A stretch of DNA of 64,000 nucleotides from NCBI GenBank assembly GCA_050084985.1, contig JBITNC010000001.1, positions 186,062,001-186,126,000 of the forward strand, read 5' to 3'. Shown piece after piece: positions 11,191 through 62,414 of the stretch; positions within the stretch are counted from its first letter, which is position 1; the number at the start of each line of letters is the position of its first letter. A program made the position numbers and the translations under genes. A model generated the notes under the pieces. It did not search any database, was not told the origin of the DNA, and was given only the letters and a program-made list of their open reading frames with translations. This stretch comes from Nageia nagi. Taxonomy: Eukaryota > Plantae > Pinophyta.

Positions 11191-11929
11191 TCCAATTTAC
11201 CTAAAGAATTCTACCCAAATGTATTGTATGTAAGATGGTTGGTAATATGAGTTGGGAGTTTTAAAACGAATAAGAACATTCTCCAAAAATGAGTAATGAA
11301 ATAAATTGATCTATTAAGAATGTCAATATCAAAAACTTATTTAACACACTTATTAATAAATTAAGAAAGTAGAGGAGGGTGAATTTAGGCTCAATGACCC
11401 CAATTAGGAGGCCCTTGAAAGCAAGGATAATAATATCAATGAAGTAAGTGCTAATAGTCTTGTAGTAACCCAAATTATTGATTTTCACGTTAGACCATAT
11501 AATCATGTGCCAACCATATATATATATATAAGTGTTACCTCATTATAGATACCTAGATCATGCCTAGGGATCCACAAGGATGTGGTCCCTCACTCCATGC
11601 CTACAAATTAGCCTAGGGATCATAATGACTCATATGACCAACTATAATCCATGAGAACACCTCTAATCATGCATTGGGATCTTGGGATCCCCATCATTAC
11701 ACTTAAATACTAATTATATTTCTAATCTACCCTTGTAGGGAGATGTCCCAGTTTGGGGCTTATAATTGGTCCATGGAATCCGTAAGTATCCTATATAAGG
11801 TTACAATTATGCCTAAGTACATAAGCATTAAATAAATAAATACTCATAATTAAAAAGTATTCCTAGAAGGAACGAGTCCCAAAAGTGAATTTTACATTAA
11901 CATAAATAATACAATTATGATAACAATTT

Positions 11930-15821: not shown

Positions 15822-16190
15822 TTATTTGCAGTTGATAAAGGTGGCCGATATTGGTTCGATAGGTAGCCTAAGAACATGTTGAGGGAATTGCTCGTACTGA
15901 GTGAATCTGGCTATTCCACCTGCTTTCAAAATGGGTTTGCCCTCGTTTGGCATCACCACCTGCGAAGAAATTGGTCCACCGTTAACGGACTGGAGTAACA
16001 GCTTCAGCCTCACGTCCCTGGCATCGCAGGATTTGCAGTTATTCACCACTTCAATATCATAATAATCTTGGCTACCACTCACGCTTAATAACGTAGCCTT
16101 AATGTCTGTAATTTGGCATTCCGCCCAGGCTGACACAATCATACCTAATACTATCATAAAAACTACCAAAAAATTTCGCCCGGACTCCAT
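15822..16190 (-). CDS. Secreted cysteine-rich TPD1-like (TAPETUM DETERMINANT 1 family) protein, copy 1, 122 aa, intronless
   Basis: ATG at 16190 (the ORF track extends it to an upstream TTG). Hydrophobic signal peptide MESGRNFLVVFMIVLGMIVSAWA|EC. Motifs C-x3-DI, YDIEVVNNCKSC, NEGKPI-x3-GG-x3-F-x2-Y and a terminal S-x5-C follow the TPD1-family pattern recalled from memory (no search run). TATA-like box 48 bp upstream; CpGs retained. Confidence 0.85.
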   Translation of the reverse strand: MESGRNFLVVFMIVLGMIVSAWAECQITDIKATLLSVSGSQDYYDIEVVNNCKSCDARDVRLKLLLQSVNGGPISSQVVMPNEGKPILKAGGIARFTQYEQFPQHVLRLPIEPISATFINCK

Positions 16191-16237
16191 GTCGACAACA
16201 CTAGCTCTACGTTCTTTCAATTTTCATGTAGTATGCT

Positions 16238-16245
16238 TTTAAATA
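16238..16245 (-). promoter_or_regulatory. TATA-like box of copy 1
   Basis: cTATTTAAAag on the minus strand, 48 bp from the ATG; same spacing in all three copies. Confidence 0.6.
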
Positions 16246-17469
16246 GGAGCAAGTGGTCGCTGGTTATTCCAACCAGCCGATTTGATTTGGAGTTGGCCCT
16301 GTTATCCGGGACGATGTTTGTCCATAGAATCTCCATCATGGCAATGATGAGATACGAAATGCCGTTTTGGGCTGAAGGCAATCTGAACGAATCATACAAG
16401 TTAAAGATAAATGCTAATATTAGATTAAGAAAAAGTTGCTGCTTGTCATAGAGGATAAAGCTGGGATGCCAATCGTCGACGTTTTGTTTATAGCAATCCA
16501 GAGTTTTCCTATTTGGAAATTAACAGGCATTGAGCAGGAGTAGATTTGACAATCCGAAACGTTACTTAAGAAATTGATAACAGTTACTAATTTTTATTGA
16601 CTGTCAAAAACGTTTTACAACACCTTTCAGCTCACAGAATTTTACATTCTAAAATTATTAAGATAAAGTTTACTATTTAGAAAAAAATGAAATCCTAAAA
16701 GGGTTGATGCTTCACTTAAAAAAATGAATTGTGTTCTTATTCATCTTCCTATTAATTTCTTAATTATTTTGAAATAAGGAATTATTTATAATATTGCAAT
16801 GGTAGAAGAGTTATAATCCTATAAAATTAAGGGAGGGTTATTAGATGTAATCAACTGAGAAATTTTATGAAAAGCATAAAGGAAGGAAGTACCCCATGGT
16901 ACCCCACACTAAATCTAAGGAGAAAATAAAGATACAACATGGAGATACAACTCAAAAAAATTTGATGAATGAACCAAAGCATGCAAATGAGGAGAAAGAA
17001 ACACATGAAGAAAGGGATATCTAACCCAAGGATCTAATTGAGAAGAGTTTTGATGATTTATTTTCCATGATGAACATTATTGAAAATTAGATGTAGTTAT
17101 GGAATTGACAATTAGAAGGGAGAAATAGGAGAGGGATGTAGGTCCTAGAGTAAGCCCTATGACTCCCCATACATAAAGATATGCCTCTATTTGGGAGAAG
17201 GAACCAAGAGGAAAAATGTCCTTACATAGATCTTGTTAGAGAGATCCTAGAGAGGAGGAAGATTTCTTGCATAGATATAGAGGTTTAGGGCTTAACCAAG
17301 AAGGCCAAAGGTTTGAGAAGAAAGAACCTATTTTTCAAATATCCAAATAGCTTAGAATGATAAACAATGGAGGGAATTACTTTTTCAAAACTAGATATAC
17401 TAGATATCTATTATTTTGTGAACTAATGCATAGGGTATGGAAGGAATGGTTATAGTACATTCATTAGTA

Positions 17470-19049
17470 TTTTTTTAGGCTAAAATTTTTAGGTTAAAAT
17501 TTTTAGGTTAGACAAATTTTTAGGTTAGAAAAATTTTTAGGTTAGAAAAAGTTTTTAGTTTAGAAAAATTTCTAGGTTAGAAAACTTTTTAGGTTAGAAA
17601 AACTTTTAGGTTAATAATTTTTAGGTTAATAATTTTAGATTAATAATTTTTAGGTTAATAGTTTTTAGGTTAATAATTTTAAGGTTAATACTTTTAAGGT
17701 TAATAATTTTTAGGTTAGAAAAATTTTTTTAGGTTAGAAAAATTTTTAGGTTACAAAATTTTTTAGGTTAGAGAAATTTTTAGGTTAGAAAAATTTTTAG
17801 ATTAAAATTTTTAGATTAGAAAAATTTTTTTAGGTTAGAAAAATTTTCAGGTTAAAATTGTTAGGTTAAAATTTTTAGGTTAAAATTTATAGGTTAATAA
17901 TTTTTAGGTTAGAAAAATTTTTAGGTTGGAAAAAGTTTTAGGTTAGAAAAATTTTTTAGGTTAGAAAATTTGTTAGGTTGGAAAAAATTTTAGGTTAGAA
18001 AAATTTTTAGCTTTACAAAAATGTTTAGGTTTACAAAAACTTGTTTAGGTTTATAAAAATTTTTAAGTTCGCAAAAATTTTTAGGTTTACAAAATGTTTT
18101 TAGGTTTACAAAAATTTTGAAGTTTACAAAAATGTTTTAGGCTTACAAAAATTTTTTAGGCTTACAAAAGTTTTTAGGTTTACAAAATTTTTTTAGGTTT
18201 ACAAAAATTTTTAGGTTTACAAAAATTTTTAGGTGTACAACATTTTTTTTAGGTTTACAAAAACTTTTAGGTTTACAAAAATTTTTAGGTTTACAAAAAT
18301 TTTTGTAGGTTTACAAAAATTTCTAGGTTTACAAAAATTTTTAGGTTTACAAATTTTTTTTTAGGTTTACAAAAATTTTTAGGTTTATAAAAACTTTTAG
18401 GTTTACAAAAAAATTTTTAGGTTTAAAAAAATTTTAGGTTTACAAAAATTTTTAGGTTTACAAAAAGTTTTTTAGGTTTACAAAAATTTTTAGGTTTACA
18501 AAAAGTTTTTTAGGTTTACAAAAATTTTTAGGTTTACAAAAATTTTTAGGTTAATAATTTTTAAGGTTAATAATTTTTAGGTTAGTAATTTTTTTTAGGT
18601 TAATCATTTTTTTAGGTTAATAATTTTTTAGGTTAATAATTCTTTAAGTTAATAATTTTTAGGTTAATAATTTTTTAGGTTAATAATTTTTATGTTAATA
18701 ATTTATTTAGGTTAATAATTTTTTAGGTTAATAATTTTAAAGTTAATAATTTTTAGGTTAATAATTTTTTTAGGTTAATACTTTTTTTAGGTTAATAATT
18801 TTTTAGGTTAATAATTTTTAGGTTAATAATTTTTTAGGTTAATAATTTTCAGGTTAATAAGTTTTAGGTTAATAATTTTTAGGTAAATAAATTTTTAGGT
18901 TAATAAATTTTAGGTTAATAATTTTTAGGTTAATAATTTTTTAGGTTAATTATTTTTAGGTTAATAAATTTTAGGTTAATAATTTTTAGGTAAATAAATT
19001 TTTAGGTTAATAATTTTTAGGTTAATAATTTTTTAGGTTAATAATTTTT
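17470..19049 (+). repeat. Minisatellite with TTTTTAGGTT core and 14-18 bp variants
   Basis: Blocks of TTTTTAGGTTAGAAAAA, TTTTTAGGTTAATAA, TTTTTAGGTTTACAAAAA and TTTTTAGGTTAAAA. Confidence 0.97.
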
Positions 19050-19485
19050 GCAAGTATCAATTGTAGCATTGGAGAGACATCTTTAAAAAAATGGACAACA
19101 CATCATGTAAAACCAAAAAAGCTTATTTATTTCAAATGAAAAATCATAAGCTTATTCAAAATCTCTTATTCCAAAACATATTTCGAGCTAGAAGCTCTAC
19201 TCAACTAGACTATGAGAAATGTAAGAGAGTGATCTCCATCCAAGTATAAATAAGCTCAACTCCATAAAAAATCTTAAAGTAGGGTTTATAAAAATAGAAA
19301 ATACCCTTAATTGAGTTATAACAAGTAGGTGGGGGAGCAAAAACTAAAGCAAGTATTAACTAACTAAAGTTTTAAATGTATGGTTAAAATTAATTAAAAA
19401 TTTGGAAAAAATAATTTTTACCAAATTAATAATTAATTTTTAAAGGTTATGAATAATTTGCATAAGAACTTAAAAAGTTTAAAGA

Positions 19486-19695
19486 TTAGGGTTTTAGGGT
19501 TAAGGTTTTAGGGTTAGGGTTTTAGGGTTAGGGTTTTAGGGTTAGGGTTTTAGTGTTAGGGTTTTAGGGTTAGGGTTTAAGGGTTAGGGTTTTTGGATTA
19601 GGGTTTTAGGAATAGAGTTTGAGGATTAGGGTTTTAGGATTAGGGTTTTTAAGATTAGGGTTTTAGGATTAGGGTTTAAGGATTAGGGTTTTAGG
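19486..19695 (+). repeat. Interstitial telomere-like tract (TTTTAGGGTTAGGG)n decaying to (TTTTAGGATTAGGG)n
   Basis: Direct reading of ~210 bp of alternating TTTTAGGG and TTAGGG. Confidence 0.92.
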
Positions 19696-19821
19696 ATAAA
19701 CCTAAAACTTTTAACCTAAAAAAATACTAATGAATGTAGTATAACAATTCCTTGCATACCCTAATGGTTATAAAAATTTGGGATCATTAAGATTAATTTT
19801 AATTCCCTAATGGTTATAAAA

Positions 19822-22280
19822 AGTCATAGGCTTTGATGGAAATTTTGGGCATGTGTTATGCTCCTTTCATCTCCTTAATTATGGCATATTCCCATTCATC
19901 TATTCTCATTTGAATATAACTCCACTCTTAAGCCTTGTTGAATTTGGGGTAGCCCATGTAAATATTTACCTTTCTATTGAATGATATTTTTAATACTATG
20001 GGACCTTGATCAATTATTTCCTTTAAGTAATAAAAATACTATAGGACATATAAAAGAAGGATCTTATCTTCTTCACTTCTTTAAGCTACTCAATCATACC
20101 ATCACTGACAACCTAACTCTAGCATATGTTATGTCCTTTGTTGACTTTATACAAGAAACCAAACAAATTATTCTTAAAATAAATTTTAATATATTTACCC
20201 AAAATCATGCATAAGAAGCTAGTGGCTTTGTTTGAGGTATCATGGGATAAGCACCTTTGGGCTTTCATTACAACTTGATGGGCTAGGCCATGATGTTTTG
20301 GATTTAACAAAGACCAGATGAAGTCATTAGGCCTATATTTGCTATTATATTCTTCATACTTCCAATCATCATCCTCTTGAGTGAAAATAATCCCTTGATT
20401 TTACAAACCCATAGCTTTCTCAACACCCTCTTTTGTGAAGTATGCAATAATTATTCCTTCTACATTAGTGACCACTTGCCTTGTGAAATCAATATGCTCT
20501 GCTACTTCCAAAACCACCAATAGAAAGATTACCAAAAATGGGATAACTACAGTTGAAAGAGTGTTAAATATTTAAGGACATATTTTTCTCTAACTTTCTT
20601 TGAAATCCCCTTTGTATCCCTCAGCATAAAAACTAGGTTGGTATGATTCCATTTGGGGTCTCTTATATTCTCTAGCCTATCATAGTAATAGACTATTTGT
20701 TTAACTCTTCCATCCTTCTTCAATTCCACAAAATTGATCTTGGGAAGCTAAGAGTAACCACCAAATTCCTTCTTTTACTTGGTCATCCTAAAAATAACAA
20801 AGGTCAAATTTAGCCATCAGTTCAAGACAAGGTAAAATGAGTACAATTTTATCAAAATTTCATTTTTTTAAATTATTATTTTTTCTTCGATCACATTGAG
20901 TTATAAACATAGGTGGGTGCAGCTATCAAATTTTAGCTACTTCACTTTAGGTATGATCTTGTCATGATGTGACAATTGAAGGCCTTATTCATATTGATTT
21001 GACGTTCAAGATGATGTGATAATGAAATATTTTGATCAATTTTACATTTTTTGTCCTTAGTTACTTTGAGTTTTTATATAACATGATGTGTCAAGAACCA
21101 TACATGATCGCTATGAAATTAGTCTCAACTTGATGTGATAGAACAATTAGCAAATTTTCATTCTTGTTTGCTATGAGTTTGAAAGAAAGTTAATGCAACC
21201 AAAAGAAACTATGATCACTTCTAGTTAATGATCAATCTGATGTGATGAATCTATGCCTTATTCATTTCAACTAAATGTGTAATGCAATGTGATAAAGTAA
21301 ACAAATTGAAGTTTGATCTTGTTTAGTCCATTACAAACCTATTTACTAATATTAGCTCAAAGAAGATGAAGAAGTGGGTGCAATAATAAAACTCAAAAAG
21401 TCACTTTGACTTGATGTTTGGCTTAGTTTGGTAGTGGTCACACTCACTAGGAACTAAACATAATGTGACATCAAGAATATCTTAATCTATCTAAGTTAAC
21501 TGCCAACACACTCCAACAGAATCATAATCAAGGTACTAAGTGAAAAATGAGGGGTGGACCTAACTATTTATAGAAAATGATGAAATAGAGGGATACATGG
21601 AAAGAATTAGATAACATTTCCCTAGATCAAATGGCTGAAAAATAATGGATGAAGTGGTGTTGGTCAAGGTGAGTAGAATTTATACTCAATGCAATTGGTT
21701 GAAGTGTTGGTCACTTTGAGAAGGTATTAAACTTGATGTGACAGTAAAAAATGCATAGTCAGGGTCAAGTAGATATCAATATCAATGTGAGCAAAGGAAA
21801 AAAATGTGAAATTCAAAATTCAATATTTTTCATGTAGTTTTCAAAAATGAAGACTATTTTATTTTCAAATCATGAAGAAAACTAACTTTCACATTTTGAT
21901 GTCCTAAATGAGAACTTCACCTCAAAAGAAAGATTTTGATGCTCATCATTCAATGATTAAGTAGGACCAAGTTTCACTCTTGTCTACTGTAGGTGCTTAC
22001 AATCAAGCTCAGAGGATGATATTCAATGGTATCATGAAATTCATTTCAATGTTAATGTTTAGAATATGTTCTTACCTATGAGGTGAAAGATGCTACCCAA
22101 CAGTCCAAACTCTTTTAATGATAAAAGATGTGATCTTGATGAACTTTTTATTTTTGGATTTTTGATAATTTATTTTTTAGGTATTTTTGTTTAAGTAGCA
22201 TAAATGATAAAATATTTTCTAGATACCTAAATTGAGGAAAAGGTTGAACAAAATTATTGATCAAAAATTGGGTTGTAACA
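19822..22280. mobile_element. Same retroelement fragment, left-truncated (unit 2)
   Basis: Matches ~1103-3563. Confidence 0.45.
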
Positions 22281-23700
22281 ATATCTAAAGGTGATGAAGA
22301 GCTAGATAAGAAAAAAAATATTGAAGTAAATAATGTCCTTTTAAAGGATGATATGCTACTAGAATAAGGTGATTTAAATATAGGTAAAAAAAATAGAGAA
22401 GAAACAAGAAGTTAAAAAATTAGTGATTAGAGAAGAGTTAGACCAATAAGGGAAGATTTCATAAATAAAATCCACAATTGTTGAAGAGATGGTCAGAGAT
22501 TTTATGTATAAGGAATTAATCCAAGGGGATTAAGGATCCAAAAATAATAAAAATTTATACACAATATGTTTCATAAAATAAATTCATTTCAAGTATCCTT
22601 TACCAAAGAGGATAGATAATCACAAGTCTCAAGATAATAGTAGATGTGCAAATAGGAGATAAGAAGGTGGGAAACACATATTTAAGAGAAAATTACATAA
22701 AGGAGATATAAAAGAAATACAATAAGGAAATGATCTTATAATAATATAATGGAATGCTAGGGAAATGAATTCCCATAACTACAATAGGTTTTAAAGAATA
22801 CTGAGAAAGAAATATCGACCAAGAATAATATTTAATTTGATAATATATTACTAAGTACAAACTAGAAAAGCATTCAAAATAATCCTTGATTTGGAATAAG
22901 GGTAATATTTGTCATTGGGGATCTACAAATTTTTCAAGAAGATTGTTAACCTCATGGAATTATGAACAATTAGAACAAAAAATCATTCTAATGAATGAAA
23001 TTATTTATTTATTTATTTTTTATAATTAATTTTTTGAAGTTGCAATAATTTTTTTTTTGGAGAATATATAAATGGTAGAAGAGATAAAAAAATATAAAAT
23101 TTGAGAATAGTTAGAGGGAGAATATATTAATAACAAAAATATTTTAAAGTTTTAAAAATGATTGTAGTATTAGAATAAAAAGAGTAGTCAATATATACTA
23201 TTCAATAGGATATTTCCCAAATAAATGGAAATAATAACTCCGAAGATGATCAAAGGAGTGTTATAAAGTGGAAACAACCTAAAGGGTGGCTGAAAATTAA
23301 TGTTAATAGGGCATATAAAGGTAAAATTGAAAATTTTAGAGGAGGATAAATATTAAGGGGTAGAGAGTAAATGTTATAAAGAGAAATGATTGGCTAGCTT
23401 GGGAACTGGACTAACTATTAAGAAAAGGGTAGAGCAACAATTAAGATGATGTTGCATATGGGAACTAGAAAGATTATTTTAGAGGCTAGTTCACATAATA
23501 TTGTTACTAGACTAAATAACATGATGGGAATTAACTAGAATTTAAACAAAATTACCTAAGACACACTGACACATCTAATATATCTAGCTAACTATAAGGT
23601 TGTATATGTTTATATATAAGGCAATAAAGTGGTGGACTAGCTGACAAAATTGATTACATTTAGAGAAGATGATAACATATGAATACCTCTAATTTAGTTT
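22281..23700 (+). mobile_element. LINE RNase H-containing remnant (unit 2)
   Basis: Paralog of 3564-5000. Confidence 0.8.
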
Positions 23701-24405
23701 TATCTTAGTATATTACAATTTATGGTAGTTGAAATGTATAATTCAATAAGCTTAGTAATAGACCAATAAATCCAACTTAAAGTATGTGTATATCTAGACA
23801 TGCATTATACATTCTAAAAATCTTTGTGATTTTTTTTAAGGAGGTATAGATATTTTTTAATATCTAATGAACTATATTATAAAAATATGAATTAATTTTA
23901 AGAATATATATAATAATATATGCTTATAAAAGGACTCAATCCCTTTTAAAAATATGTTTTTATCAATATATTTAAAAAAAAAACTAAAGTACTTTAAATG
24001 AAAAATATTAATAGTTTATCGTATTAAATAGAAAATAGAGGTGAATACTACTAACAATTTCAATCCAATATAGGAGTTGTTATAACTATTGAAAATCTTT
24101 ATAATTTTATACAAATTCACTATAAAAATTATCGCGCATAGAGTTCAGTATTTACAATCTTAAATAGTAACTTTATTTATTTTTCTTATAATTTACATCT
24201 TTAAAGATTTGCAAAAAAATAACTCAAGCTATACATTAACCTTAGTAAAAGAAGATTCACTATAATGGTTATAGTTTCTTACAAGTTGTTAGAATCCATT
24301 AGTAGAAAAACAATACTAGGATATTGTTCTATCAAGATTAAAATATTAGATGATCTCATTCATGTTATTACAAGAAGTTGAACAATCAAAATGTAAAGTA
24401 CACAT

Positions 24406-24553
<148 letters not shown>

Positions 24554-26149
24554 ATTGATTAATTTGGTAAATTTTGTATTAATAGAAAAGGTGGATTTTT
24601 GAGAAGTCATCCTAAACTTTGAACATAAATATCATAGGTTAACATTCCACAAAAAAAATTAAACAAGATAGGCACTAGCTTTTGGTGCTACACACAAGAC
24701 CAGTTCTAACCTTTACACAAAAGGTGAGATTATCTACAAGAATAACTAGAAACTAATAAATAAGTAAGGTACTACTAAAGAATGAAATGGAGATTGTAAT
24801 GATGCTTGGAGAAGTTGACATATTGTGCATGAAAAAATTATTTCCTAAATGAAGAGTTCTCTCTAATGGTCTCATAAGTTGGGTAAGGTGCACCTATATA
24901 CTGCATCACCTCTATGAGCATTCTATTGTGGATTAACTTAGCCACTAGCATTTTAACCATTTTTACCTTTATCTTTGATCTTTTCTTGATTAGGATTATA
25001 ATTAGTTTATTCCATGAGGACACTATATCTACCTCTTCATCTATACTTTGTTCTAGTTTGTTAATCATACCATGGGGCAATTCAACTTCTTTTGGTTTCC
25101 TTACATATCCACTTCACATATTTAATTCAGTATCTATTGTGTTCATTTCTTGATCTAGGTTTGATTGAAGATTTTCATAATCACTTTATTTCACATCAAA
25201 CTTCACTAGAGACTTTGTAGGACTATCATTCAATTTCAATTTTGCTGCATTCCATGGATCATTAATATTTAGACAAACTTAAAATTTATCTAAATTGATT
25301 GTATTGAAATGTTCTTTTATTACACTCTTCATAAATGAACTCTATTTTCCTTTACCTAAATTTCTAATCTTGAAGGGTTTCAGAGTTGAGCAATCCTCCA
25401 AATTGATTAATGTTAGAGATAAATCTTGATTACCCTTAGGGGTTTGAGCTTTCTTTTTTTTTATGGAATTTCCAAAATTATTGCCTTTTTAAGTTCAACA
25501 TTTTGTGCCCTAGTTCTAGAAGCAATGAATGCAAGCTTTTCTTTCTAAGAAGCATTGGTAGACTTCTTAGAATAAGTAACCCTTGATTCAATAATTACCA
25601 TGATTGAGATAAGGATGGTAGGCATATCCTTAGCATCAAGCTGACTTTTAAAGGACATAGGTATTTTGGGAGATTTCCATTTAGATTCATCAAATAAAAC
25701 TATCTTATTAGCAACTTTCTAATTTACAGCCTTCGTGGAAGATAGCTTACCTATGGCAACATATAATTTGGATTGAATCTACTTTAAATATGCAACTATG
25801 ATGTAATGGTGTAGTGTTAAGGTCTCTTAGTCTTCCTTTATGATATCACAAGTTATAATACCATATCCAAGAGAGAAAACAATACTTATGTATAGGGGTA
25901 ATAAAGGAAGTGATAAAACTTGAAGTGCTATTAGAGGCCAATCAAGGTTTCCTACATAGTAGGTTATAAGACTCCCCATTATATATACACAGATATAGAA
26001 TCCTTAGAAGTTTACCTTAAACTTTAATTTATTAGAAATACAATTATTCCATATAAGATAACATAAATGGTCCACAAAATCAAAATTTTACCCTAAACTT
26101 TAGGGTTATAGGCATAGTGTATTACATTTCTAGGAAGACTGTAGCTAAA

Positions 26150-28913
26150 CAATCAAGGGAATGCTATGAATAAATAAAGATCATGAATAGAGTCAAAACC
26201 TCCTAAATAATGGTGTAGTATGCTTCTTCAAAAAAACACTTTTGGTGATGAAGTAACTAGGATGGTCCTAGAGATAAAATTCTCCCAGTATATAGTTAGT
26301 ATTAGAATTGCAAGAAGTATCAAAGAAATGGAAGAAGATGATCTTAGAAATGCCCTAGTTTGAAGATTTCCCTTTTAGGATTTAATTACTATTTGGATTA
26401 ATGATATATGGTAAACCAAAGCAATAATTTTTCTTCTTATGTTTCCTAGAGAACTCTTGATTTTAAAATTCAAATTCAATGAAGATTTATAGAAGGTTAT
26501 TGTACTAGGATAGTAGTTCATCGAGAAGAAAGATCTCATAATTAAGAGATAGCATAAAAGCTATGCTAAAAAGATTAAGAATTTTAACCTCATCCAAACC
26601 AATATCTGCCTACCAAGCTTCAATCCTTCACATTCTCATCCAATAATGATTGCAAGAGTGGCTAAAGAAAATATATCATTAGTCACAATCGAAAGAGCTA
26701 CTCGATTAAAACTCAAATTTATTGATGCAAGATTTATGGTCAATTTGGTTATTATCAAATGATTAATGAGAGAGATAAAATTAAAAATAAAATATGATAT
26801 AAAATTTATTCAACCAATAATGTATGAAAATATGCTAGTAAATGTGGTATCTATAAAATTTTTAAACATTATGCCAAAGACTATCTAGAATAGAAATTAG
26901 TGAAGATGATAATTTAAAGCTTACAACTTACTTTTCTAAAGAAGAGATTACCTCCACTATATTCAAAATGGAAAGGGATAAAGCCTCAGGTACTGATGGT
27001 TTCCCAACTAGATTCTTGTAGGAATTTCGGCATACCATAGGAGGTGATATTATCATGTTTGATAAGGAATTCCAATGGAATAAAACATTACTTAAATATT
27101 GGAATACTACCTTCTTGACCTTAATTCTAAAAATGTAGGGGCCTCCTAATGTAAACATTTTAGACCTATTATATTATATAATACAATTTATAAACTTTTC
27201 ACAAAACTTATGGCTAACATAATAGGACAAATCCTCCCAAAATTCATTTCCCCAAAAAATATGGTGTTATGAGAGAAAGGTAGATTATGGATGGCATTAT
27301 TCTAATGCATGAAATGGTGCATTCCATGAGGTATAAAAATAAAAAGCTATGCTAATTAAACAAGATATGCAGAAAGCTTATGATCATGTTTCTTAGAAGA
27401 TTTTGAATTAGGTTCTTGAAATATTTGATTTTAGAAATCAATAAAGGACTTAGGTTAATCTATGCATTTCTACAACAACTTTCACTATTTTTGTTAATGG
27501 AGAAGTTATGTTTTTTTTAAATCCTCTAGAGTTTTGAGACAAGTTGATCTCATTTCCCCCTATTTGTTTATCACTTTAGTTGAATCTTTAGGTAGGGCAT
27601 TAAAGAAGGCCAACCAATTAGGGAATATTAGAGGTATCAAACTTATAAATGCTTATTCTTCAGTTACACGTCATTAATTTATTAATGATATCATAGTTAT
27701 TGGTAAAGATAATATTAGAAAACTTCTAACCATGAAGGATATGTTGGATGAATATAAAGATGCTTTGAGTTAAAAGATTAACTATGATAAGAATAATATT
27801 TGTTTCTCCAACATTCACCAATGGAGGAAGATTGAGATTGCTCACATCTTCCAATATCAAATGGGTGCTCTCCCTACTATCTAATTTGGTATTCTTCTCT
27901 TTTAAGGTAGTGTTTAGAGAACTTTCTCAAATATAGTTATGAATAGACTAGATAAAAAACTTCTCGAGTGGAAAGCCACCCTTCAAAGTATTCTAATGTA
28001 TATTGATAGTGTTTTTAGAATGCCTACTCTTGTATCTAAAGAGATTAACCAAATATGTGCTATATTTGTTTGAAAAGGTACAAAAGAGAAGAAGAACATA
28101 GATTTGGTGTCTTGGGATATGGTGTGTAGGAAAAAACCTTAAGGAGGATAAGGAATTAGATAAATTAGATTAATCAATTAGGCTTATAAGGATTAAACTT
28201 GCTTAGAAACTCTTCCAGAATCAAGATAAAGAATGGATTCATATGTGTAAATATAAATATTTTGAAGGCATAAATAGTTTGATTAGTATGAATAACCCCT
28301 TAAGAGGATCAAACTTATAAAAAGGGCCAACATAAGTAGGAGATACCATTGTTGGCAATTCCAAATGGGAGCTTAATAATAGCCAAACCATAGCCTTCTG
28401 GGATGATAGATGGTTAAATTCTAGGTCATTGGAAGAAGAACATAATTGATTCTAGCTAATGATATAGGCTAAAACTAAACTAAGAATTAAAGTTACTAAC
28501 TACCTTAAACATCAAGGTGATTCAATTGAATGAGCCTTCCTCATACTAATGATAATAATCTATCTTCTATTAAAGAAACTCTTATGTAGAAATTAGCAAG
28601 AACTCAGATGTACCCAACATAAAAACCTAATTATCTATTTTGGATAGATGAAAAAAGTAAAAAGATGGAATATTTAATTAAATTAGGATACAACCATCTA
28701 AATAGAAATAAAAAGAATATGAGGAAGCATTTATGGTTGAGTGTATAGATAAAAGGACTAATTCCTAAGCGGCATACTTTCTATTGGCTACTATATTGAA
28801 CCAAATCCATACCAATGATATTCTAAAGAAAAAGGGATGAGCTTTCTAATACATGTATTATGTGTACTAAATAAAATGATTCATTTTCTCACCTCTTTCT
28901 CCAATGTGAATTT
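26150..28913 (+). mobile_element. L1-clade LINE remnant with ORF1 fused to RT by a deletion (unit 2)
   Basis: DKASGTDGFP, FRPIILYNTIYK, DMQKAYDHV, LRQVDLISPYLF, and zf-RVT motif CIMC...HLFLQCEF. Confidence 0.9.
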
Positions 28914-31387
28914 GGGAACTGAACCCCCTACATCTATTATATCCTCTAGAAAGAGAGAAATGTAAGGTCATTTAAGGAATGTAGCCAAAATGTTTCTCAA
29001 TTTTGGAAATAATACCTTAGTCTATTATTAAAAAATATTGCCCTCAATTGAACCCCACTAAAGATGCAAAGTCATTCCAATGGATCTGCTTACTGCCCTT
29101 AGAGATCAACCCCACCTCTATGGTTGGGGAAGGGAAGAGCATGTCTATGGACCCATGATGTAGCATTTACATATTGGTTTAATAGAGGGGCTAGGATAGA
29201 CCACCTCTATGATTCAAACATTAATCACATACCCCCTCACACTAAAAGCTTGAGTTACTCGATAAGGTGGCATGAATTATATTGCATTATCCTCAAAAAT
29301 TGAGGTATTGTACATGAATATGGTATACTTTGATATTATTACTTTCTTACCCCATCAATGCTACCCATTATCTATTCATTGCATGGTGTTGTAGCTATTG
29401 TAATTATGGGAAAGAATAGTTTGGCCAAGTCAAGTAACCATTGGGAGGTGAAAGATGATAGTCTAGTTTGGGAAATTTTGGGTTGAGGTGGTGTTCATAG
29501 ATATATCATGAATTATTAGGGTCATAACCTTGCACTTAAGGATGCAAATATTTTCAATTTCAATGAAAAATGAGCTATAATTAGGATTATGCAAGTAAAC
29601 TTGTTTATGGGTAACATTGTTGAAGCCAATGAGTTAAATCTAGATGGAAGAATGTTCAAAAGAAACTCTAATGTGATACTTGAGGAAATTCATTAATTCT
29701 TCAAACTAGGTGAAGTGCTAGTTATAAAGAGGATTAACATTGATCGTAAAAAATTTCCTAATCCATAGGATAGAGTTGAAAAATGGGTCACTAAGTACTT
29801 CATGTTGGATGGTAGGTACACTATCATTATTGGATTCAATATCTTTTTTCTCTATCATTTCTATTAGGTGGGAGAGAGTACCTAGTCTATTTTTCATTAA
29901 TTCTATTAGAATTTCTATTAATCAAATTTATGATAAGGAGAAAAAGCAAATGAGGCATCTAGGTCTCATCACTTTTATGTATATGAAAGCCCTAGCTAGA
30001 ACCCTAGGGAAGAAAATTAAAATTGATCAAACTGTAGAGGATTTTTAAGCTATGAATCCTTCTATGAAATACATTTAGAAGGAGAAATGTGTAGGATACA
30101 ATTTGAAGAGCCATCACAAACTAAATCCTAGAACCCCAAAAAAGTTAGATCCTCTAAAATTTAGTCCAAAAGGAAGTATTTAGTATCAAATTCAAATGGG
30201 GGATTTATTATAATTGAACCTTAAAAAAAAGCTTAAAAGTGGTAAAGTCCAACCTAAAGAGGTTTTTACAAGATCTTAAAGGGATAAAATAACTGATGTT
30301 GTACCTAATAAGAATTGAAAAGTTCTACATGTTTAGGATAGTATCCTTATGGAGGAATTGAAGGTTAATTCCCATTCTATGATCTTAGGAACCTCACATG
30401 GATGAGGAAGGTGTGTATTCATCTACCTCTTCTAATGACCCTATGGAGATTCCTCATCCTAGGTCTCCCTCAATGTAAGAGGAGAAAACCTGGGTAACAA
30501 TTTTGGAGCAATAGGGTCTAAAGGAGAGAATATGGTCTTAGGGGACATTAATAGAATAGAAACATCTCAAAAGCCAAAAGAAGAGGAGTCCTCTACTAAA
30601 AAGGTTGATAGTAAGGATGTCTTGGTTGAATTAATAGATATAGGCCAATATAAGGATGATACTGGAGGAGTTAACACTATTATGGAAATGGATAATCCAA
30701 TGAAAATAGTTGTTTGGTCTCTTGTGATAAAGGAGGTAGAGAAGACCAAAAAAATTGATGTGATGGAAGAAGTGCATCTAGAATGTATCAAATAAAGGAT
30801 ACAAGCTTGATAGAAATGACAACAATTCTCGTTATAAAGAGAAAGGAGTGTATGGAGGGTGATTAGTCTTTCCATTCTAGATATGGGAAGAAAGGAAGTG
30901 ATCATAAATAGGTGAAGAAAGAGATGACTGGATGACCCCTCAATATCTCTCCCCAAGCATAAATCCCAACTAAATAATTAGTTCCCTCTAGATATCCCAA
31001 TTTAATGCAATTTAGAATACATACTAGGGTGGATTCCAAAAAAATGAAAGAGAAGAAAATTTCAAAGTAATAAGGAAAGGAGGGAAAAAGGCTCTTATGA
31101 TTTTATTAATGGTCTCTTTGTAGTTTGTTCTAGCATTTAATATAGTCAAAGCAAAATATATAGTGGATTGTATCCACTAAATATATTAGATAGTAGTTAT
31201 ATCTTTTTTTTTGTATAGCAGTGCTATTTTGAATATATTTTACTAGTGTTGCTATTAATTTTTGGTTACCACCAAGTATAGTTGGGTAGTAGTTTCCTCC
31301 TTTCGAAATCATTTTTGTGATCGATTTTTTTAGGATTGGGATAAAACACTGCACTTTTTGATAATATAATTTACCCTTACTATCAAT
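28914..31387 (+). mobile_element. Unclassified decayed repeat ending in a LINE-like 3' tail (paralog at ~57032-59496)
   Basis: Purine-rich degenerate frame ending ...taatataatttacccttactatcaat. No domain recognised. Confidence 0.35.
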
Positions 31388-34265
31388 CTAATTTAAATAT
31401 TCTTAACCTAAATTTTTATTTTTAAGAATATTTTAAAGTTATTTCTAATTTGAAATAAAATTAACTTAAATTCCATCCTAGCTTCCCACATTCAACCCAT
31501 GGATTCATGAGTAGTGTAAAACCATTAGGCTACATGAAAGCCATTGGTTTTTTAAATTTGTTCTTTAATATAGAAATTACATACTTTATCTACCACCTTT
31601 AAGTAATTTTACTCTTAAGCCAGATTTAGTTCTCCATAAGAATGTTCGTTTAACTTATAAGAAGTCCTTTATTATGATCCTATATAGGATAACTTTATTT
31701 TAAATTCCAAAGTAAAGTATTAAATAAATGTTACAATATTTATTTGAAAACTATGATAATTTTCAAACACTATTATATATCAAGAATACCCTTCTTTTTG
31801 CCACCTTGCTACTCTCCAGCCTTCATACACCCTCTCGACATCCTTTGAGACTATTATTGCCTCTACATTGGCTCCTTTTTTTATGGATCTATAAATGATT
31901 TGTCTATCTATAAGCATTTATAGACTTCAACTAATTTCTCTATTCAATTTTAAGTGAAAAAATATTGATATTAAAGTTCCTTAATTAGAACTAAACATAA
32001 AAAATGAGTATAAAGTTATGCATTTTTCCATACATAATAAGGTAATTTAAATGACCTCCAAGCTATTTATAGTAAAAAATAGCTCATTAGCAAGTTTATA
32101 GGAGCATGACCTAAGGTAGACCATATTTATAAATGAAAAAATACAAATTAAAGAATACAAGGATATTTTGATATTATATTCCTCCTCGAAGTCTTCCTCC
32201 TCTTCATCTCTAACCTATAAGCAAATATATAACAAGTTTCACAAAAAGGTCCTTATATATTTGAAAAGAAGGGTTTCTTTTTCGAGAAAATGGTAAAAAA
32301 TTTCTACTTGAAAAAGAAGGATATACTAGTCATTCCTACTTGGATCCCTCTTATAACTCTATGGAATTTTGAAATGTCAATATCATTATTGGAATTGCAA
32401 ACGTAATTGAGATTATGATCATAATGGACAACATCTCTAAAAATAAAATTAAAATAGTAGCTGCCAAGTTTTATGTCAATTCTAATTTACCTAATGACAT
32501 CCTAAATAAGATCATGATCAATGCTAAATCATGTGGTTATGAATAGATCATGATCAATGCTAAATCTTTCTCCAATTTACCTAAAGAATTCTACCCAAAT
32601 GTATTATATGTAAGATGGTTGGTAATGTGTTTGGGAGTTTTTAAAAAGAAAAAAGAACATTCTCCAAAAATGAGTAATGAAATAAATTGATCTATTAAGA
32701 ATGTCAATATAAAAACTTATTTAACACACTTGTTAATAAATTAGGAAAGTCGAGGAGGGTGAATTTAGGCTCAATGACCCCAATTAGGAGGCCCCTTGAA
32801 AGCAAGGATAATAATATCAATGAAGTAAGTGCCAGTAGTCTTGTAGTAACCCAAAATATTGATCTTCATGTTAGATCATACTTAGTGTAAATTAGGTGTA
32901 TGTGAAGCTTATTAGAACTAGAAGAAGCGAAGTGGAAGATGATGACAAGGATCCTTGAGGTAGGTTACCATTAAGAAAATAAATAGAGAGATTATAAATG
33001 GCATCCAACACAATCTAGAGTAGCGTGGAGGTATGATTAACCCACAATCAAGATGATTACAAGATCCTTAGTTTGAAACCCACTTCTATATTACTTTTTT
33101 TTTAATATTCAATGGAAAGAGCCACATTTGGATAAGTCACCAAATAACTCAAAGATCTTATACACCACTAGCAAATCAATACCAATATGATATTATCAAT
33201 AAACTATGGAAGTATATTTTCCTAATATTTGGTGGCTCATCTTGAGAAAATAAAATCATAGGACATTTAGGAATTGCATCAAGGATCTAGTTGTACTTCA
33301 AGCCAAGCATAAAATCCACATTAGTAAAAAAATTAAGCATTATTTTTCAATTAATAAGGATAACATGATTTTGAAGAAAATATCAACAATTTACCCTTTC
33401 ATCTTGCAACTCATGAATCCTCAATTGTACCATTAACAATCTATGGTTTTGGACAATGATGATCTCTTTTGAAAATGACTCCCAACTTACTTGAATTAAA
33501 ACTTTACTGGTTGACAATCGTATCTTTCAGTTTTCTTTATAATTCCTTTAAAATCAGAATATTAAAATAAATTTTGAATTCGTATATAAAAAATCCTATA
33601 TATATAGAATTGAAAGTATCATGAATGAAGATGAAAACGTATATTTGAGTGGATGATCGTAAATTATTAAGTTCCCTAATTTTGACCAATATTTTAAAAT
33701 CTGCAATAACTAAACTATTACATATGAACGTATAGAAACTTAGGCATCAACAAAAATATTTTACAGGAATTAGATTGTTATTTTAACGATGGTGGAAAGA
33801 TGGACTGATAAATACATGAATTTTGTGGGGAATAGGATTTCATTTTTTCTAATAGTAAAACTTTATCTTAATAATTTTACAATGTAAAATTCTGTGAGCT
33901 GAAAGGTGTTGTAAACTTTTTGACAGTCAATAAAAATTAGTAATGTTATCAATTTCCTAAGTACGTTCGGATTGTCAAATTACTCCTGCTCAATGCCTGT
34001 TAATTCCAAATAGGAAAACTCTGGTTGCTATAAACCAAATGGTCGACGATTGCATCCCAGCTCATCCTCTATGACAAGCAGCAACTTTTTCTTAATCTAT
34101 ATTAGCATTTATCTTACTTGTATGATTCTTCAGATGCCTTCACCCAAAACGGCATCGTATCTCATCATTGCCATGATGAGATTCTATGGACAAACATCGT
34201 CCCGGATAACAGGGCCAACTCCAAATCAAATCGGCTGGTTGGAATAACCAGCGACCACTTGCTCC

Positions 34266-34273
34266 TATTTAAA
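34266..34273 (+). promoter_or_regulatory. TATA-like box of copy 2
   Basis: cTATTTAAAag ending 48 bp upstream of ATG 34321. Confidence 0.6.
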
Positions 34274-34320
34274 AGCATACTACATGAAAATTGAAAGAAC
34301 GTAGAGCTAGTGTTGTCGAC

Positions 34321-34689
34321 ATGGAGTCCGGGCGAAATTTTTTGGTAGTTTTTATGATAGTATTAGGTATGATTGTGTCAGCCTGGGCGGAATGCCAAAT
34401 TACAGACATTAAGGCTACGTTATTAAGCGTGAGTGGTAGCCAAGATTATTATGATATTGAAGTGGTGAATAACTGCAAATCCTGCGATGCCAGGGACGTG
34501 AGGCTGAAGCTGTTACTCCAGTCCGTTAACGGTGGACCAATTTCTTCGCAGGTGGTGATGCCAAACGAGGGCAAACCCATTTTGAAAGCAGGTGGAATAG
34601 CCAGATTCACTCAGTACGAGCAATTCCCTCAACATGTTCTTAGGCTACCTATCGAACCAATATCGGCCACCTTTATCAACTGCAAATAA
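34321..34689 (+). CDS. Secreted cysteine-rich TPD1-like protein, copy 2, 122 aa
   Basis: ATG at 34321, TAA ending 34689. CDS appears identical to copy 1. Cys at residues 25, 52, 55 and 121. TATTTAAA at 34266 and AATAAA at 34748. Confidence 0.85.
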   Translation: MESGRNFLVVFMIVLGMIVSAWAECQITDIKATLLSVSGSQDYYDIEVVNNCKSCDARDVRLKLLLQSVNGGPISSQVVMPNEGKPILKAGGIARFTQYEQFPQHVLRLPIEPISATFINCK

Positions 34690-34747
34690 ACTCCTACATC
34701 TTTACTTCAGTTCAGAATGTAGCGTAGAATGTCTCTCATGTCGTATA

Positions 34748-34753
34748 AATAAA
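34748..34753 (+). terminator. Candidate polyadenylation signal AATAAA (also present after copies 1 and 3)
   Basis: AATAAA ~60 bp after the stop codon. Weak evidence in AT-rich DNA. Confidence 0.35.
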
Positions 34754-37008
34754 GCTTGTGAAGACACAAGATATGAATCCTTTGGAAGGTTATCGATCTA
34801 AAAAAATAATATTGTAATCCTTGCATAGATTAGATATAAAAGCAATCCATTCATAAGGTTTGAAGTGCTTTTATGTTAAATTGGTTCTTGATCCAAACTA
34901 TATTGAGTGGAAACATTAAATTATAACTTCTTAAAATGTGGTTGCTTAATTTAGTTAATAAATTTTATTAATAGATATTCCAATTTGAAATATAACATAT
35001 TTTTTTTATGATTTAATAGTTTTATAGTATTTACAATGGTTTATTTATTTTAATTGAGGAGTTACTCTTAAGAAATAGCATGTGGAACTTGAGCGCTTAA
35101 AAGGGGCATTTTTAATATCAAGTTGAACTATTGGTATATATTTTTAATATCTTATAGGAGAAGGGTGTTTCAAATTCATACATACCTAGAAATAAATTCT
35201 AACAATTAAAAAATATGGCTACGAAAGAGGTATAGGGGCTTTATTCATTTTGTACCCAAAGCTTCATATGATCACCTAGGTTGTTTGCTTTAGATAGCTT
35301 ATGGGTATATTTATTTGCCTTAGTTGAAGCAAGATTATGGGCATGCTTCACCATTTCAACAAGTTTGAATAAATAACTAAATTAAAATTTTATCTATTTC
35401 TTGTTAGAAATTCAATGTAATTATTAGATTTTAAATTATTTGACAAATAATTTCGTATAAAATTTATGTCCATTGATAGTACTTGAAGATTAAGTTTTGG
35501 TTCCTTAATATTTAGATCCCTAAGTCTATTTTACCAAACCTACACTATTTGAAGGTAGTATTAATTAAATACTTGAAGCCTAAGTATCTAGAGCCAAAAT
35601 AAATCCCTTCTCATTTTCTTTTCATGTGTTTTTTGTTGTGATTGATTTGGTCAATAGTGCTTTACCCATTAAAATTCTAAGGCCAACAAAATCTAATCAA
35701 ATCCAAAAAGAATTGGAAGGCTTCATGGTTATCGATTTGCATGCTTATGCATGAAATGGTCAATTTCCTAACATCTTTGGTGCAATTTAAATCATGTTCA
35801 AGTCTAGTTTGTTTATATTTTATGCTCTAACAAGCTATTATGGTTATCAATGTATTCACCATGAAGGTATGAAATTGGTCTTCTTCACCACTATTTTGTT
35901 TATTTCTTTCTAACCATCATTGTTAGGGCTAGTTTTAGATCCATGGTGTTCTAGTATGGGAGCTAGTCAAAAGAGGAATCAAATTAAAGGCATCCATATC
36001 AACAAATTTTAGTTGACTACATCTAGCATATACACCATAGTTTAATATATACAATATCAGCATCTTTCTATACCCTATTTTTTCTTATATTATCATGTAA
36101 TCTAATTTAGAAACCATAAAATAAAATGTGTTTACAAAATCTATTAGAATTTACTCATTGTATTGTAACAAGTCAAAAAGACCTGTTTGTTGTAATCATA
36201 GACACATTCCTTTATAAACTAAGTGCTCAAATGTTTGTTTGGCTTGAGTAAATAACTAAGTCATAATTCTACATATTTGGAATTTATCATCTAAGGTTAA
36301 ATTGATTGGGATTTAAGCATGTTATTTGACTTATGATCATGTTTAAGTTCATATATCATTTTTATGTATTCACTATATAATATTTTAGGTTAAGCTGCTA
36401 GTTTCATTGTTATGTTCACATAACAAAACTTAGAGTTAAATTTTGGTTACATAGTTGAAACTCTAATTGAGTGATACTACCTTAGGTACATCATTGTATA
36501 TGAGAAAGAAATATATATATGTTACATTGAAATTGCATAAATCATTTTCATTAATTTTTCAATTATGATGATAACATTATACTAGGTGAGTATTACATCA
36601 TTTTTTACATAACATGAATTTATTATTTGGGTAAATTATTGAATGCTAGTGTTGTATCATTCATCACTTGATCAATATTTTATGGAATGTACTACACCAA
36701 AAAGGATTTTTATGTTAGTTTAAAACCATTAAAAAAATCCATCATAAAAATATAAACTAAATTTAAGATATATCTTAATGGAACTCAAACATTCATTTAT
36801 AAAATTAAAATATTCTTGTAATTTCATTCCCTCATGTGTGAGAAGCATTTTTTCATAACAACATTTGTGTGAAAATAAAAATATAATAAAATTGGAGAAA
36901 AAGACCTCTTGTAAGAGTTGAGTTGACAAAAGTGAGAATGATGCTAAGAAACAATGAATTCATTAGGTTCAACACCACTTGCAATTCATTGCATTTAGGT
37001 TAGGGTTT

Positions 37009-38531
37009 ATGAATTCTATAGGAACTATGCAAAAAAGTTCATACTACAACATTAAGTTTTATTGGCATGTTCTTTAGTCTATTATTTCATCTATATGCTT
37101 AATACTACAAAGAAGGTCAACCATACATGTGTCGAGTTCCATTATAGATACAATAAGATAATAATTATTCATGGATTTGAAGTATTGATAGCCCTATTTT
37201 AGTAGCAATGAATGGATACATGAAGATAATACATTTAAAGATATAACATTATTTATATTAATGTTCAATATATTTTATTTAATTGAATAGTTTGATGGCT
37301 TCCTTGCTACAACCATTCCTTACATTGTCTTTTATCATTGTAGTCCATGAAATTATTTATTCATAACACATATTGTTAAAACTTTATCATTTAATTCTCC
37401 CATATTTTTATACATAAGTATCAAGGTTGTATTATAATTGCATCATAAATATTATTTCACACATGTTCTATATATTCAAATTATTTGATGGTTTCCTTAC
37501 TATAACCATTCCTTCCATACCCTACAATAATTGTGTTCATAAAATTATTTGTTAATAATGCATCTTGTAAATCCTTATTTATGATCCCATATTTTATACA
37601 TATTATTAGTATTTTTTTCTTATCAAATTACATCATTGTTCAATACCTAATATCTATTTTTTTTATTTGATGGTTACTTTTATAATTATTCCTTTCATCT
37701 AGCAATAATTACATTAATAAAATCATTTGTTCATAATCATTTTATCAAATCAAAATCTTGTGTATTAATGCTCCAATTTTATTACAATAATCCATTAGTA
37801 ATTACATCATATGGATTAATGCCCAAATATTTTATTTATTCGAATACATTTACATATTTCTTAGTATAACCATTTCTTGTATACAATACAATCATTGCAA
37901 TCCATGAAATTATTTATTCATAATGCATTTTTTCCAATAAAACCATTTCTCTCTTAATACTTGCATATTTTTCTTACATATTTATCAATATTATTATCAT
38001 AGTTATATTTTCATGATTAATACCTATATATTACACTTGTTAAAATAGTTTGATGGATTCCTTGGTATAACCATTCCTTGCATACTTTGAAATTATTATA
38101 GTTCATAATACATCATTTTAAACAAAAAGTTTACTCCTATATTTTGTATGCATGTCTACCATGGTTGTTATAACTATTACATCATCTATATTAATGCCTA
38201 CATATTCATTTGTTTAAATATTTTAATGCATTCCTCACATACATTACAATCATTGCAGTCCATCACAATGTATCTTATCAAGCAACACACTTGCTATCTT
38301 AATACTCCCATATTTTGAATACATACCTATCATAGTTTTAACATAATTGCATCATCTATATTAATAGTGACATATTCTATTTGTTCAAATAACTTGATGA
38401 ATAACTTTCTACAACCATTAATTGAATACTCTATAATCACTAAAATGTATGAAATTATTTATTCATAATACATCTTTTAAAATAAAGACTTTATGGTATT
38501 AATTCTCCTAAATTTCACATACATGCATATG
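37009..38531 (-). pseudogene. PLS-class PPR pseudogene, unit 2 copy
   Basis: Reverse complement of 11930-13484. Confidence 0.85.
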
Positions 38532-40088
38532 AAAATTGTTATCATAATTGTATTATTTATGTTAATGTAAAATTCACTTTTGGGACTGAAATTCACTTTT
38601 GGACTCATTCCTTCTAGGAATACTTTTTAATTATGAGTATTTATTTATTTAATTCTTATGTACTTAGGCATCATTGTAACCTTATATAGGATACTTATGG
38701 ATTCCATGGACCAATTATAAGCCCTAAACTAGGACATCTCCCTACAAGGGTAGATTAGAAATATAATTAGTATTTAAGTGTAATGATGGGGATCCGAAGA
38801 TCCCAATGCATGATTAGAGGTGTGCTCATGGATTATAGTTGGGCATATGAGTCATTATGATCCCTAGCCTAATTTGTAGGAATGGAGTGAAGGACCACAT
38901 CCTTATGGATCCCTAGGCATGATCTAGGTATCTATAATGAGGTAACACATATATATGTACATATGGTTGGCACATGATTAGAGAGGATATTTTTAGTACA
39001 TCTAAAATATTCTATCTTCAATGTGGCAAAACCATCTATTAGATCTCTCATTAGAGAAATACGTAATGTAAAGAAGAACATAATGGGATGAAATTTTCAC
39101 TAGGATGTTGGCCGAGGATACAAACCCTTACTCAATCTAGAGTTGTAGTTAGATCCATGGGTTGAAGGCCTTAGTAGTGAGATGTCATCATTTGAGGAGT
39201 GTATGCCCTAGATATAGTCTTTTTAGTGAAGCATCAACCCTTTTAGGAAAATTCGATTATATATTAGTTATTTCATACTTAATATTGATACATTAGCATT
39301 TATATTCTATTTTGTCTTATATGTTGGGTATATTTTTATTATTCAAATTTGTGTTCTTATTCATATTCCTATTAATTTCATAATTATTTTGAAATAAGGA
39401 ATTATTTATAATATTGCAACGATATAAGAGTTATAATCCTATAAAATTAAGGGAGGGTTATTAGATGTAATCAATGAGAAATTTTACCAAAAGCATAAAG
39501 GAAGGAAGTACCCCATGGTACCCCACACTAAATATAAGGAGAAAATAAAGATACAACATGAAGATACAACTCAAAAAAATTGGATGAATGAACTAGAGCA
39601 TGCACATGAGGAGAAAGGAAACACATGAAGAAAGGGATATCTAACCCAAGGATCTAATTGAGAAGAATTTTGATGATTTATTTTCCATGATGAACATGAT
39701 TGCAAATAAGATGTAGTTATGGAATTGAAAATTAGAAGGAGGAATATGAGAGGGATGTAGGTCCTGGAGTAAGCCCTATGACTCCTCATACATAAATATA
39801 TGCCTCTATTTTGGAGAAGGAACCAAGAGGAAAAATGTCCTTACATAGATCTTGTTAGAGAGATCCTAGAGAGGAGAAAGATTTCTTGCATAGATATAGA
39901 GGTTTAGGGCCTAACCAAGAAGGCCAAAGGTTTGAGAAGAAAGAACCTATTTTTCAAATATCCAAATAGGCTAGAATGGTAAATAATGGAGGGAATTACT
40001 TTTTCAAAACTAGATATACTAGATATCAATTATTTTGTGAACTAATGGATAGGGTATGCAAGGAATGGTTATAGTACATCCATTAGTA

Positions 40089-43749: not shown

Positions 43750-43847
43750 ATAAACCTAAAAATTTTAACATAAAAAAATACTAATGAATGTAGTATAATC
43801 ATTCCTTGCATACCCTAATGGTTATAAAAATTGGGGATCATTAAGAT

Positions 43848-62367: not shown

Positions 62368-62414
62368 AGCATACTACATGAAAATTGAAAGAACGTAGAG
62401 CTAGTGTTGTCGAC

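Follow-up and report, generated by a model that had tools for sequence, protein, structure and literature searches.

TPD1 is a signal for cell fate in the anther, and TPD1, TDL1A and MAC1 are ligands of the receptors EMS1/MSP1. Short TPD1-like proteins form a clade that probably keeps six cysteines. TPD1 may also be linked to lily LGC1, and no publication naming both was found in our literature search. To our knowledge, little is settled about the structure of TPD1, its processing and its contacts with the receptor, and for most of the TPD1-like paralogs no receptor is known. In a mutational study, complementation of Arabidopsis tpd1 failed with the C77S, C107S and C111S substitutions, was slight with C120S and succeeded with C142S and C175S; in the same study, K135R136 was needed for TPD1 processing in Arabidopsis, and maize MAC1 was reported as unprocessed (PMC4990239). 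The rice paralog OsTDL1B showed no binding to MSP1 (PMC2408674), and in Physcomitrium six EMS1 genes accompany a single TPD1 (PMC6744412). TPD1-like genes have been described in pistils of tomato, in sporophylls of ferns and in embryos of Marchantia, without bearing on the cysteine pattern (PMC5500324, PMC13434465, bioRxiv 10.64898/2026.08.24.746769). Short multicopy TPD1-like paralogs have already been described in one report: four in Arabidopsis (At4g32090, At4g32100, At4g32105, At4g32110), five in pearl millet (CaTPD1_Ch2, Ch3 and Ch4.1-4.3) and eleven in rice, mostly of 123-137 aa, with the domain right behind the signal peptide and with uncharacterised function (PMC11771933).

The protein studied here is encoded in three copies within a 64-kb stretch of DNA (the window), and is best filed as a variant probably derived from the TPD1 domain, known from one gene in one genome. 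It resembles TPD1, TDL1A and MAC1 in its putative signal peptide, in a collinear domain of ~100 aa and in the sandwich neighbours predicted for that domain, and has in common with TPD1 the motif Y-x-x-E-x-x-N-x-C, the next Cys, N-x-G-x-P, G-x-x-x-x-F and the terminal Cys. Unlike TPD1, it is without equivalents of C120 and C142 and without the dibasic site, its identity is ~24% and its score lies under the Pfam cut-off; furthermore, its central segment is ~7 residues shorter, an insertion of ~8 residues precedes the last strand, and no variable linker runs from the signal peptide to the domain. The length of 122 aa, a first Cys at position 25, a domain placed directly after the signal peptide and the presence of several copies are features that it has in common with the short TPD1-like clade as described there. 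The proteins of that clade are detected as TPD1-domain proteins by standard tools, whereas the window protein is not. None of the 171 TPD1 proteins used below was identified as a member of the short clade, which was compared by description, so the uniqueness of the four-cysteine pattern is relative to the sampled TPD1s. No report of a four-cysteine TPD1 relative was found in the accessible text of the literature searched, which lay largely outside subscription journals.

The gene and its three copies

The coding features of the locus are as follows:

Copy A, 15822..16190, minus strand: coding sequence equal to that of copy B, within an inverted block; identical protein.
Copy B, 34321..34689, plus strand: intronless ORF of 122 aa encoding a four-cysteine, probably TPD1-derived protein.
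Copy C, 62415..62783, plus strand: three base changes relative to copy B, each nonsynonymous (Q77H, E112Q, N120K).
Predicted signal peptide (residues 1-23) of copy B, 34321..34389, plus strand: hydrophobic peak followed by an A-x-A site.
Predicted mature 99-aa beta-sandwich domain of copy B, 34390..34686, plus strand: no Trp, dibasic site or N-glycan sequon.

Translation of the copy B ORF places its cysteines at Cys25, Cys52, Cys55 and Cys121. Residues 9-19 are hydrophobic (Kyte-Doolittle value 3.25) and are followed by an A-W-A site, which by this hydropathy heuristic fits a cut after Ala23; the mature part would then consist of 99 aa (10.9 kDa), with 3 Tyr, 3 Phe and no Trp. Over the 369 bp of coding sequence, copy A does not differ from copy B, and none of the three substitutions in copy C is silent. 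ORF, copy and hydropathy analyses thus bore out the original prediction of three copies, each an ORF with a start resembling a signal peptide and Cys25/52/55/121, and are in line with the predicted mature part of 99 aa. That this is the only intact gene in 64 kb stands as well, in the sense of uninterrupted frames: the Pfam cut-off was reached by 0 of the 101 stop-to-stop frames of at least 62 aa in the window, the best match other than TPD1 being an RVT_1 fragment, an Rfam search of the window gave no match, and CpG islands were found at the three copies only. The RVT_1 fragment is a decayed reverse-transcriptase remnant at 55573-55764 on the plus strand (E 2e-4, under the cut-off).

Several elements flanking the ORF were located around copy B and its counterparts:

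TATA-like TATTTAAA, 34266..34273, plus strand: 55 nt upstream of the ATG and the same in all copies; putative function.
AATAAA, 34748..34753, plus strand: candidate polyadenylation signal ~60 bases past the stop.
CpG/CHG-undepleted island, 33501..35000, no strand: promoter and gene of copy B; CpG observed/expected 0.68-0.94 (500-bp bins) vs 0.17 in the window.
Matching islands of copies A and C, about 15501-17000 and 61501-63000, no strand: 500-bp bins.

The window, with a GC content of ~28%, holds 227 CpG dinucleotides against 1315 expected (observed/expected 0.17) and 297 CHG sites against 1106 (0.27). Such a combined loss is the pattern left in plant genomes where CG and CHG sites have long been methylated, and it points to a land plant as the source of the window. 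The coding sequence shows ratios of 0.79 for CpG and 1.2 for CHG, and within the window the three gene copies and their upstream DNA escape the depletion, and nothing else does. An island that spans promoter and gene is the trace that a long-unmethylated gene would be expected to leave, although a recent insertion could leave it too. The CpG/CHG island of each copy is what one would expect of a real gene.

Sequence relationship to TPD1

The name TPD1 had been proposed for this protein from the letters, ahead of any profile search. Comparison with 24,736 Pfam families placed TPD1_C (PF24068) at the top, with an E value of 0.016 and 15.6 bits for the whole protein and 0.01 and 16.2 bits for the mature part, both below the gathering cut-off of 27 bits for a family in which true TPD1s score 115-135. 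Taken alone this hit is weak, since 6 of the 98 other frames of the window gave an E value better than 0.016 against some family. Judged from the sequence, canonical membership in PF24068 fails on the score, on the six cysteines and on the dibasic site.

For a more extended comparison, a motif scan of metagenome contigs provided 30 loci, 29 of them with TPD1 domains, and 8 of these were aligned as a seed. The set of 171 TPD1 proteins, mutually at least 40% identical and with Sphagnum included, was made up of the best 120 of the 663 proteins found with the 8-domain seed plus 51 from a second search. Alignment with hhalign against the 8 TPD1 domains resulted in an E value of 7e-5 (probability 63%) and spanned both motif blocks; against the untrimmed 128-sequence alignment, the values were 0.003 and 10%. 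The local HMM score of 11.1 bits was matched by none of 5000 shuffles and by one of 5000 shuffles with fixed cysteines, and the three copies scored 10.3-10.4 vs 9.4 for the best of 3203 background segments. In end-to-end alignment with the 171-domain profile the protein scored 31.8, as compared with -9.0 for the best of 2000 shuffles (z 7.4), 14.5 for the best of 2000 cysteine-fixed shuffles, none of which reached 31.8 (z 5.2), -32.6 for the reversed sequence and 6.0 for the best of 333 decoy windows of beta-rich bacterial proteins. When 187 six-frame segments were ranked, the 29 true TPD1s came first and the three copies right behind them, the next best scoring 7.2. Where TPD1 columns are conserved at 90% or more, the protein keeps 18 of 54. 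These data make remote homology to TPD1 highly probable. The proposed kinship thus holds as whole-domain collinear homology by end-to-end profile and hhalign, although not at the level of the Pfam score; likewise, the profile comparison suggested as a check returned TPD1_C as the top family and a low hhalign E value, with 15.6 bits where 27 are called for.

The search for closer relatives covered proteins and contigs. A word search among proteins of 67-214 aa left one candidate and none at E <=1, and phmmer over 1.84 billion representatives found no close relative, its four matches being 24-35% identical. These four were discarded as relatives, for they are long repeat proteins of bacterial type that belong to other families, with scores summed over repeats. 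Pattern matches in contigs (232 metagenome, 8 prokaryote and 5 viral) included none confirmed as a related locus. A mixed profile built from two of the copies and two TPD1s collected 169 proteins, and the best 120 of the 169 were all TPD1 of the six-cysteine type. In the ESM Atlas the nearest entries were unnamed bacterial proteins or clusters of 119-153 aa at 0.91-0.92, with named clusters at 0.85 or less, which we take as a lead only. The description of the protein as lineage-specific is consistent with these results, no close relative having been found in the protein representatives and in the metagenome, prokaryote and viral contigs searched.

Loss of the central cysteines and of the processing site

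The six cysteine columns of the family are filled in 169, 169, 169, 171, 171 and 169 of the 171 TPD1 domains. The central pair, corresponding to C120 and C142, is thus present in 171/171, Sphagnum included, and is absent from the window protein, which keeps the equivalents of Arabidopsis C77, C107, C111 and C175, four of the six TPD1 cysteines. The original prediction had both central cysteines replaced, and exactly those two are lost: the C120 position is occupied by Leu64, and the C142 equivalent is either substituted, in the register of that prediction, or deleted with a block of 13 residues, in the profile alignments. The 13-residue gap would also take out the dibasic site, and a 6-residue insertion partly offsets it, leaving this segment about 7 residues shorter. 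In agreement with the alignment, from which the segment bearing K135R136 is missing, the mature protein contains no dibasic pair.

In the TPD1 model described below, one cysteine precedes strand 1, another follows strand 2 and a third precedes strand 3, whereas C120 ends strand 3, at the opposite end. From this strand-end parity, the expected partner of C120 is C142, and that of C175 is one of the first three cysteines, so one disulfide may have been lost as a unit. The earlier suggestion to this effect agrees with the strand order of the model, which we offer as an inference. A single outer cysteine is lacking in 6 of the 171 TPD1 domains (P0138, P0156, P0158, P0172, P0173 and P0175) and two more start past the first; the central pair is intact in all of them.

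Predicted fold

Prediction from the single sequence of the mature protein yielded a sandwich of six strands (pLDDT 57). A model of a TPD1 domain built from 128 sequences (mb9b6f445ef80; L015:871-1185, minus strand) has seven strands and a short helix (pLDDT 87). In a comparison with 48,161 chains, the top neighbour of the window-protein model was 6bt9_B 582-674 (Z 8.0, rmsd 2.7, 81 aligned residues), and the same segment was the top neighbour of the TPD1 model (Z 7.1, rmsd 2.9, 83 aligned). The two models have 18 of their top 50 structural neighbours in common, many of them carbohydrate-binding domains. Since the single-sequence model is blind to TPD1, this overlap provides independent support for a common fold class, although Z values of up to 8 can reflect merely a common sandwich. 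The domain is presented here as a predicted TPD1-like beta-sandwich. As a structural check on the proposed kinship, neighbours were indeed shared with the TPD1 model, but Foldseek gave no match at E <=0.001 for either model, and no TPD1 entry was among the matches listed. A search of the PDB by sequence gave two weak matches, both unrelated.

The best neighbours of both models are CBM2-type domains (ChiA74 6bt9, EngD 3ndy and Cex 1exg; Z 5.8-8.0), a feature of which is an exposed tryptophan platform. The window protein differs from these domains in its identity of 11-14%, in a mature part free of Trp, which would therefore have no such platform, and in standing alone, without an enzyme. CBM2 was not among the Pfam matches at E <=10, a search in which HMMER filters drop weak matches. 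No report of a CBM2-like fold for TPD1 was found in the accessible literature, with subscription journals largely outside the search.

Segmental triplication of the locus

Self-alignment of the window revealed three co-oriented units of ~22-25 kb each, made of repeat-derived DNA, and an inverted block:

Unit 1, ending near 16728.
Middle unit of the triplication, 16729..39348, plus strand: 22.6 kb.
Unit 3, from 39349 past the window edge.
Inverted block with copy A, 11500..16697, minus strand: 5.2 kb, inverted relative to 33833-38980.

As far as this assembly shows, the additional copies exist, and each duplication of the gene took some 22 kb of repeat DNA along, so that the copy number by itself does not speak for selection on dosage. 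The original description of a tandem amplification is right as to the three copies, but these do not form a simple tandem gene array: they lie 18 and 28 kb apart in large duplicated units, with copy A inverted. At the junctions of the inversion, about 950 bp and 370 bp were lost, so that upstream of copy A only 488 bp remain. Inspection of these junctions by eye showed no terminal repeats, and near the gene only short, chance-like repeats were seen; capture of the gene by a transposon was rejected on these grounds.

The repeat-derived parts diverge by 5.2-7.0% from unit to unit, and the gene neighbourhoods are far closer between copies than the whole units are: copies B and C, compared over 34052-35909, differ by 4 changes in 1853 aligned bases, a span that is mostly non-coding. 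Since the likeness of the copies reaches into non-coding DNA, it is not evidence for selection at the protein level, and may result from gene conversion or assembly polishing. The likeness is also mosaic (33833-35909, 14602-16697 and 61908-64000), in that the coding sequences of A and B are equal, the 3' flank of B is nearest to C and the upstream DNA of A is nearest to C, which fits gene conversion tracts or consensus artefacts. Upstream of copy B (33833-34211) there are 17 short gaps in 377 aligned bases vs 2 in copy A, many of them in one-base runs, and copies A and C agree across this region; the gaps resemble errors left uncorrected in long reads more than the decay of a promoter.

Other repeats in the window include an AT-rich satellite with units of 16-18 bp in 80-94 copies near the starts of units 2 and 3 (17471-19049 and 40090-41464), telomere-like arrays of a 14-bp unit with TTAGGG in 15-16 copies (19484-19697 and 43523-43751), and a degenerate internal repeat with 63-65% self-matches at offsets near 171, 345 and 546 bp (11900-13250 and 37200-38570).

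Proposed role and alternative explanations

We give a probability of about 0.5 to the reading that the three near-identical intronless copies encode a likely secreted, probably TPD1-descended, uncut two-disulfide protein that serves some receptor distinct from canonical EMS1 as its ligand or ligand-like modulator. Worded with regard to its origin, this is most likely a TPD1 offshoot that acts on another receptor or modulates a receptor of the EMS1 family, and that is probably lineage-restricted. Under such a mechanism the starting point is a frame that is intact in all three copies, each of which lies in a CpG/CHG island between a TATA-like element and an AATAAA; in its product the signal peptide would be cut after Ala23 and the 99-aa, 10.9-kDa domain exported, and this domain is predicted to fold as the TPD1 beta-sandwich with the four retained cysteine equivalents. 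In the alignments, the protein lacks counterparts of C120 and C142 as well as the K135R136 site, with the net loss of ~7 residues falling there; one face of the ligand would be remodelled and processing in the TPD1 manner would be impossible, from which a changed partner may be expected. The gene was multiplied in units of 22-25 kb, with one copy inverted later, and gene conversion or assembly polishing may have kept the gene neighbourhoods alike. The gene counts of Physcomitrium suggest that orphan receptors occur in some lineages (PMC6744412). A narrower version, in which the protein founds a branch of four-cysteine, uncleavable TPD1 ligands with processing loop and disulfide deleted, an orphan receptor of the EMS1 family in a non-model plant lineage and a homogenised, raised copy number that is being kept, seems doubtful to us.

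The alternatives keep some of these elements and drop others. Small secreted proteins encoded in many copies are often produced in bulk, and a TPD1 descendant of that kind could have left receptor-kinase signalling for a glycan-binding, structural or defence role in the wall or apoplast, which we consider unlikely. The protein departs from TPD1 in two thirds of the conserved columns, and chitinase and cellulase carbohydrate-binding domains (6bt9, 3ndy, 1exg, 6f7e, 2rtt) are among the neighbours of both models; yet a mature protein with 3 Tyr, 3 Phe and no Trp has no CBM2 tryptophan platform, and such neighbours are silent on function, since TPD1, a proven ligand, has the same ones. The opposite case, a working agonist of the EMS1/MSP1 type for which the central disulfide and the processing site are dispensable, would agree with the retention of equivalents of the strictly required C77, C107 and C111, with the harmless C142S substitution in Arabidopsis and the unprocessed state reported for maize MAC1 (PMC4990239), and with a TPD1-EMS1 pair that functions across land plants (PMC6744412). 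Against it, C120S nearly abolished function and K135R136 was required in that same mutational study (PMC4990239), the central pair occurs in every one of the 171 TPD1 domains, Sphagnum included, and an identity of ~24% compares with at least 40% inside the family. With C120 and the dibasic site missing, and with no binding to MSP1 shown by OsTDL1B, a much closer TPD1 paralog (PMC2408674), canonical EMS1 agonism is very unlikely.

The gene could also be a silent or redundant TPD1-derived passenger of repeat-driven segmental duplication, with no present role. Its duplication took along about 22 kb of repeats, each of the three base changes in copy C alters an amino acid, copy A lost upstream DNA, and conservation finds no support from orthologs, none having been found in the word, phmmer and contig searches. 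Contigs from one sequencing run on the same sample, of presumed kind, did not match the gene, which speaks neither for nor against expression. On the other hand, every copy has an intact frame that opens like a signal peptide and keeps its four cysteines in register, and is accompanied by a TATA-like element, an AATAAA and, amid depleted DNA, a CpG/CHG island; a divergence to 24% identity with frame and fold pattern intact would point to long selection. We give a passenger status little credence. Equally improbable, in our estimation, is an unrelated small secreted beta-sandwich, possibly bacterial, with a coincidental likeness to TPD1 in its cysteines and motifs. The Pfam score below threshold, a common fold class and the unnamed bacterial proteins of 119-153 aa (0.91-0.92) nearest to it in the language model are in line with such an origin, but the end-to-end signal holds with cysteines fixed (z 5.2, 0/2000) and exceeds 333 decoy windows, phmmer over the 1.84 billion representatives returned its four long repeat proteins of other families alone, and no related locus was found in the prokaryote, viral and metagenome contigs.

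Implications for TPD1 structure and function

A natural variant that retains the strictly required cysteines, but is without the central pair and the cleavage site, amounts to a ready-made structure-function test of the surface read by EMS1 and of the need for cleavage. In addition, the occurrence of TPD1 relatives under the Pfam cut-off would mean that the family is undercounted. In the TPD1 model (pLDDT 87), the K135R136 cleavage site lies in strand 63-67, and the reported 13-kD mature form would thus be without the three later strands.
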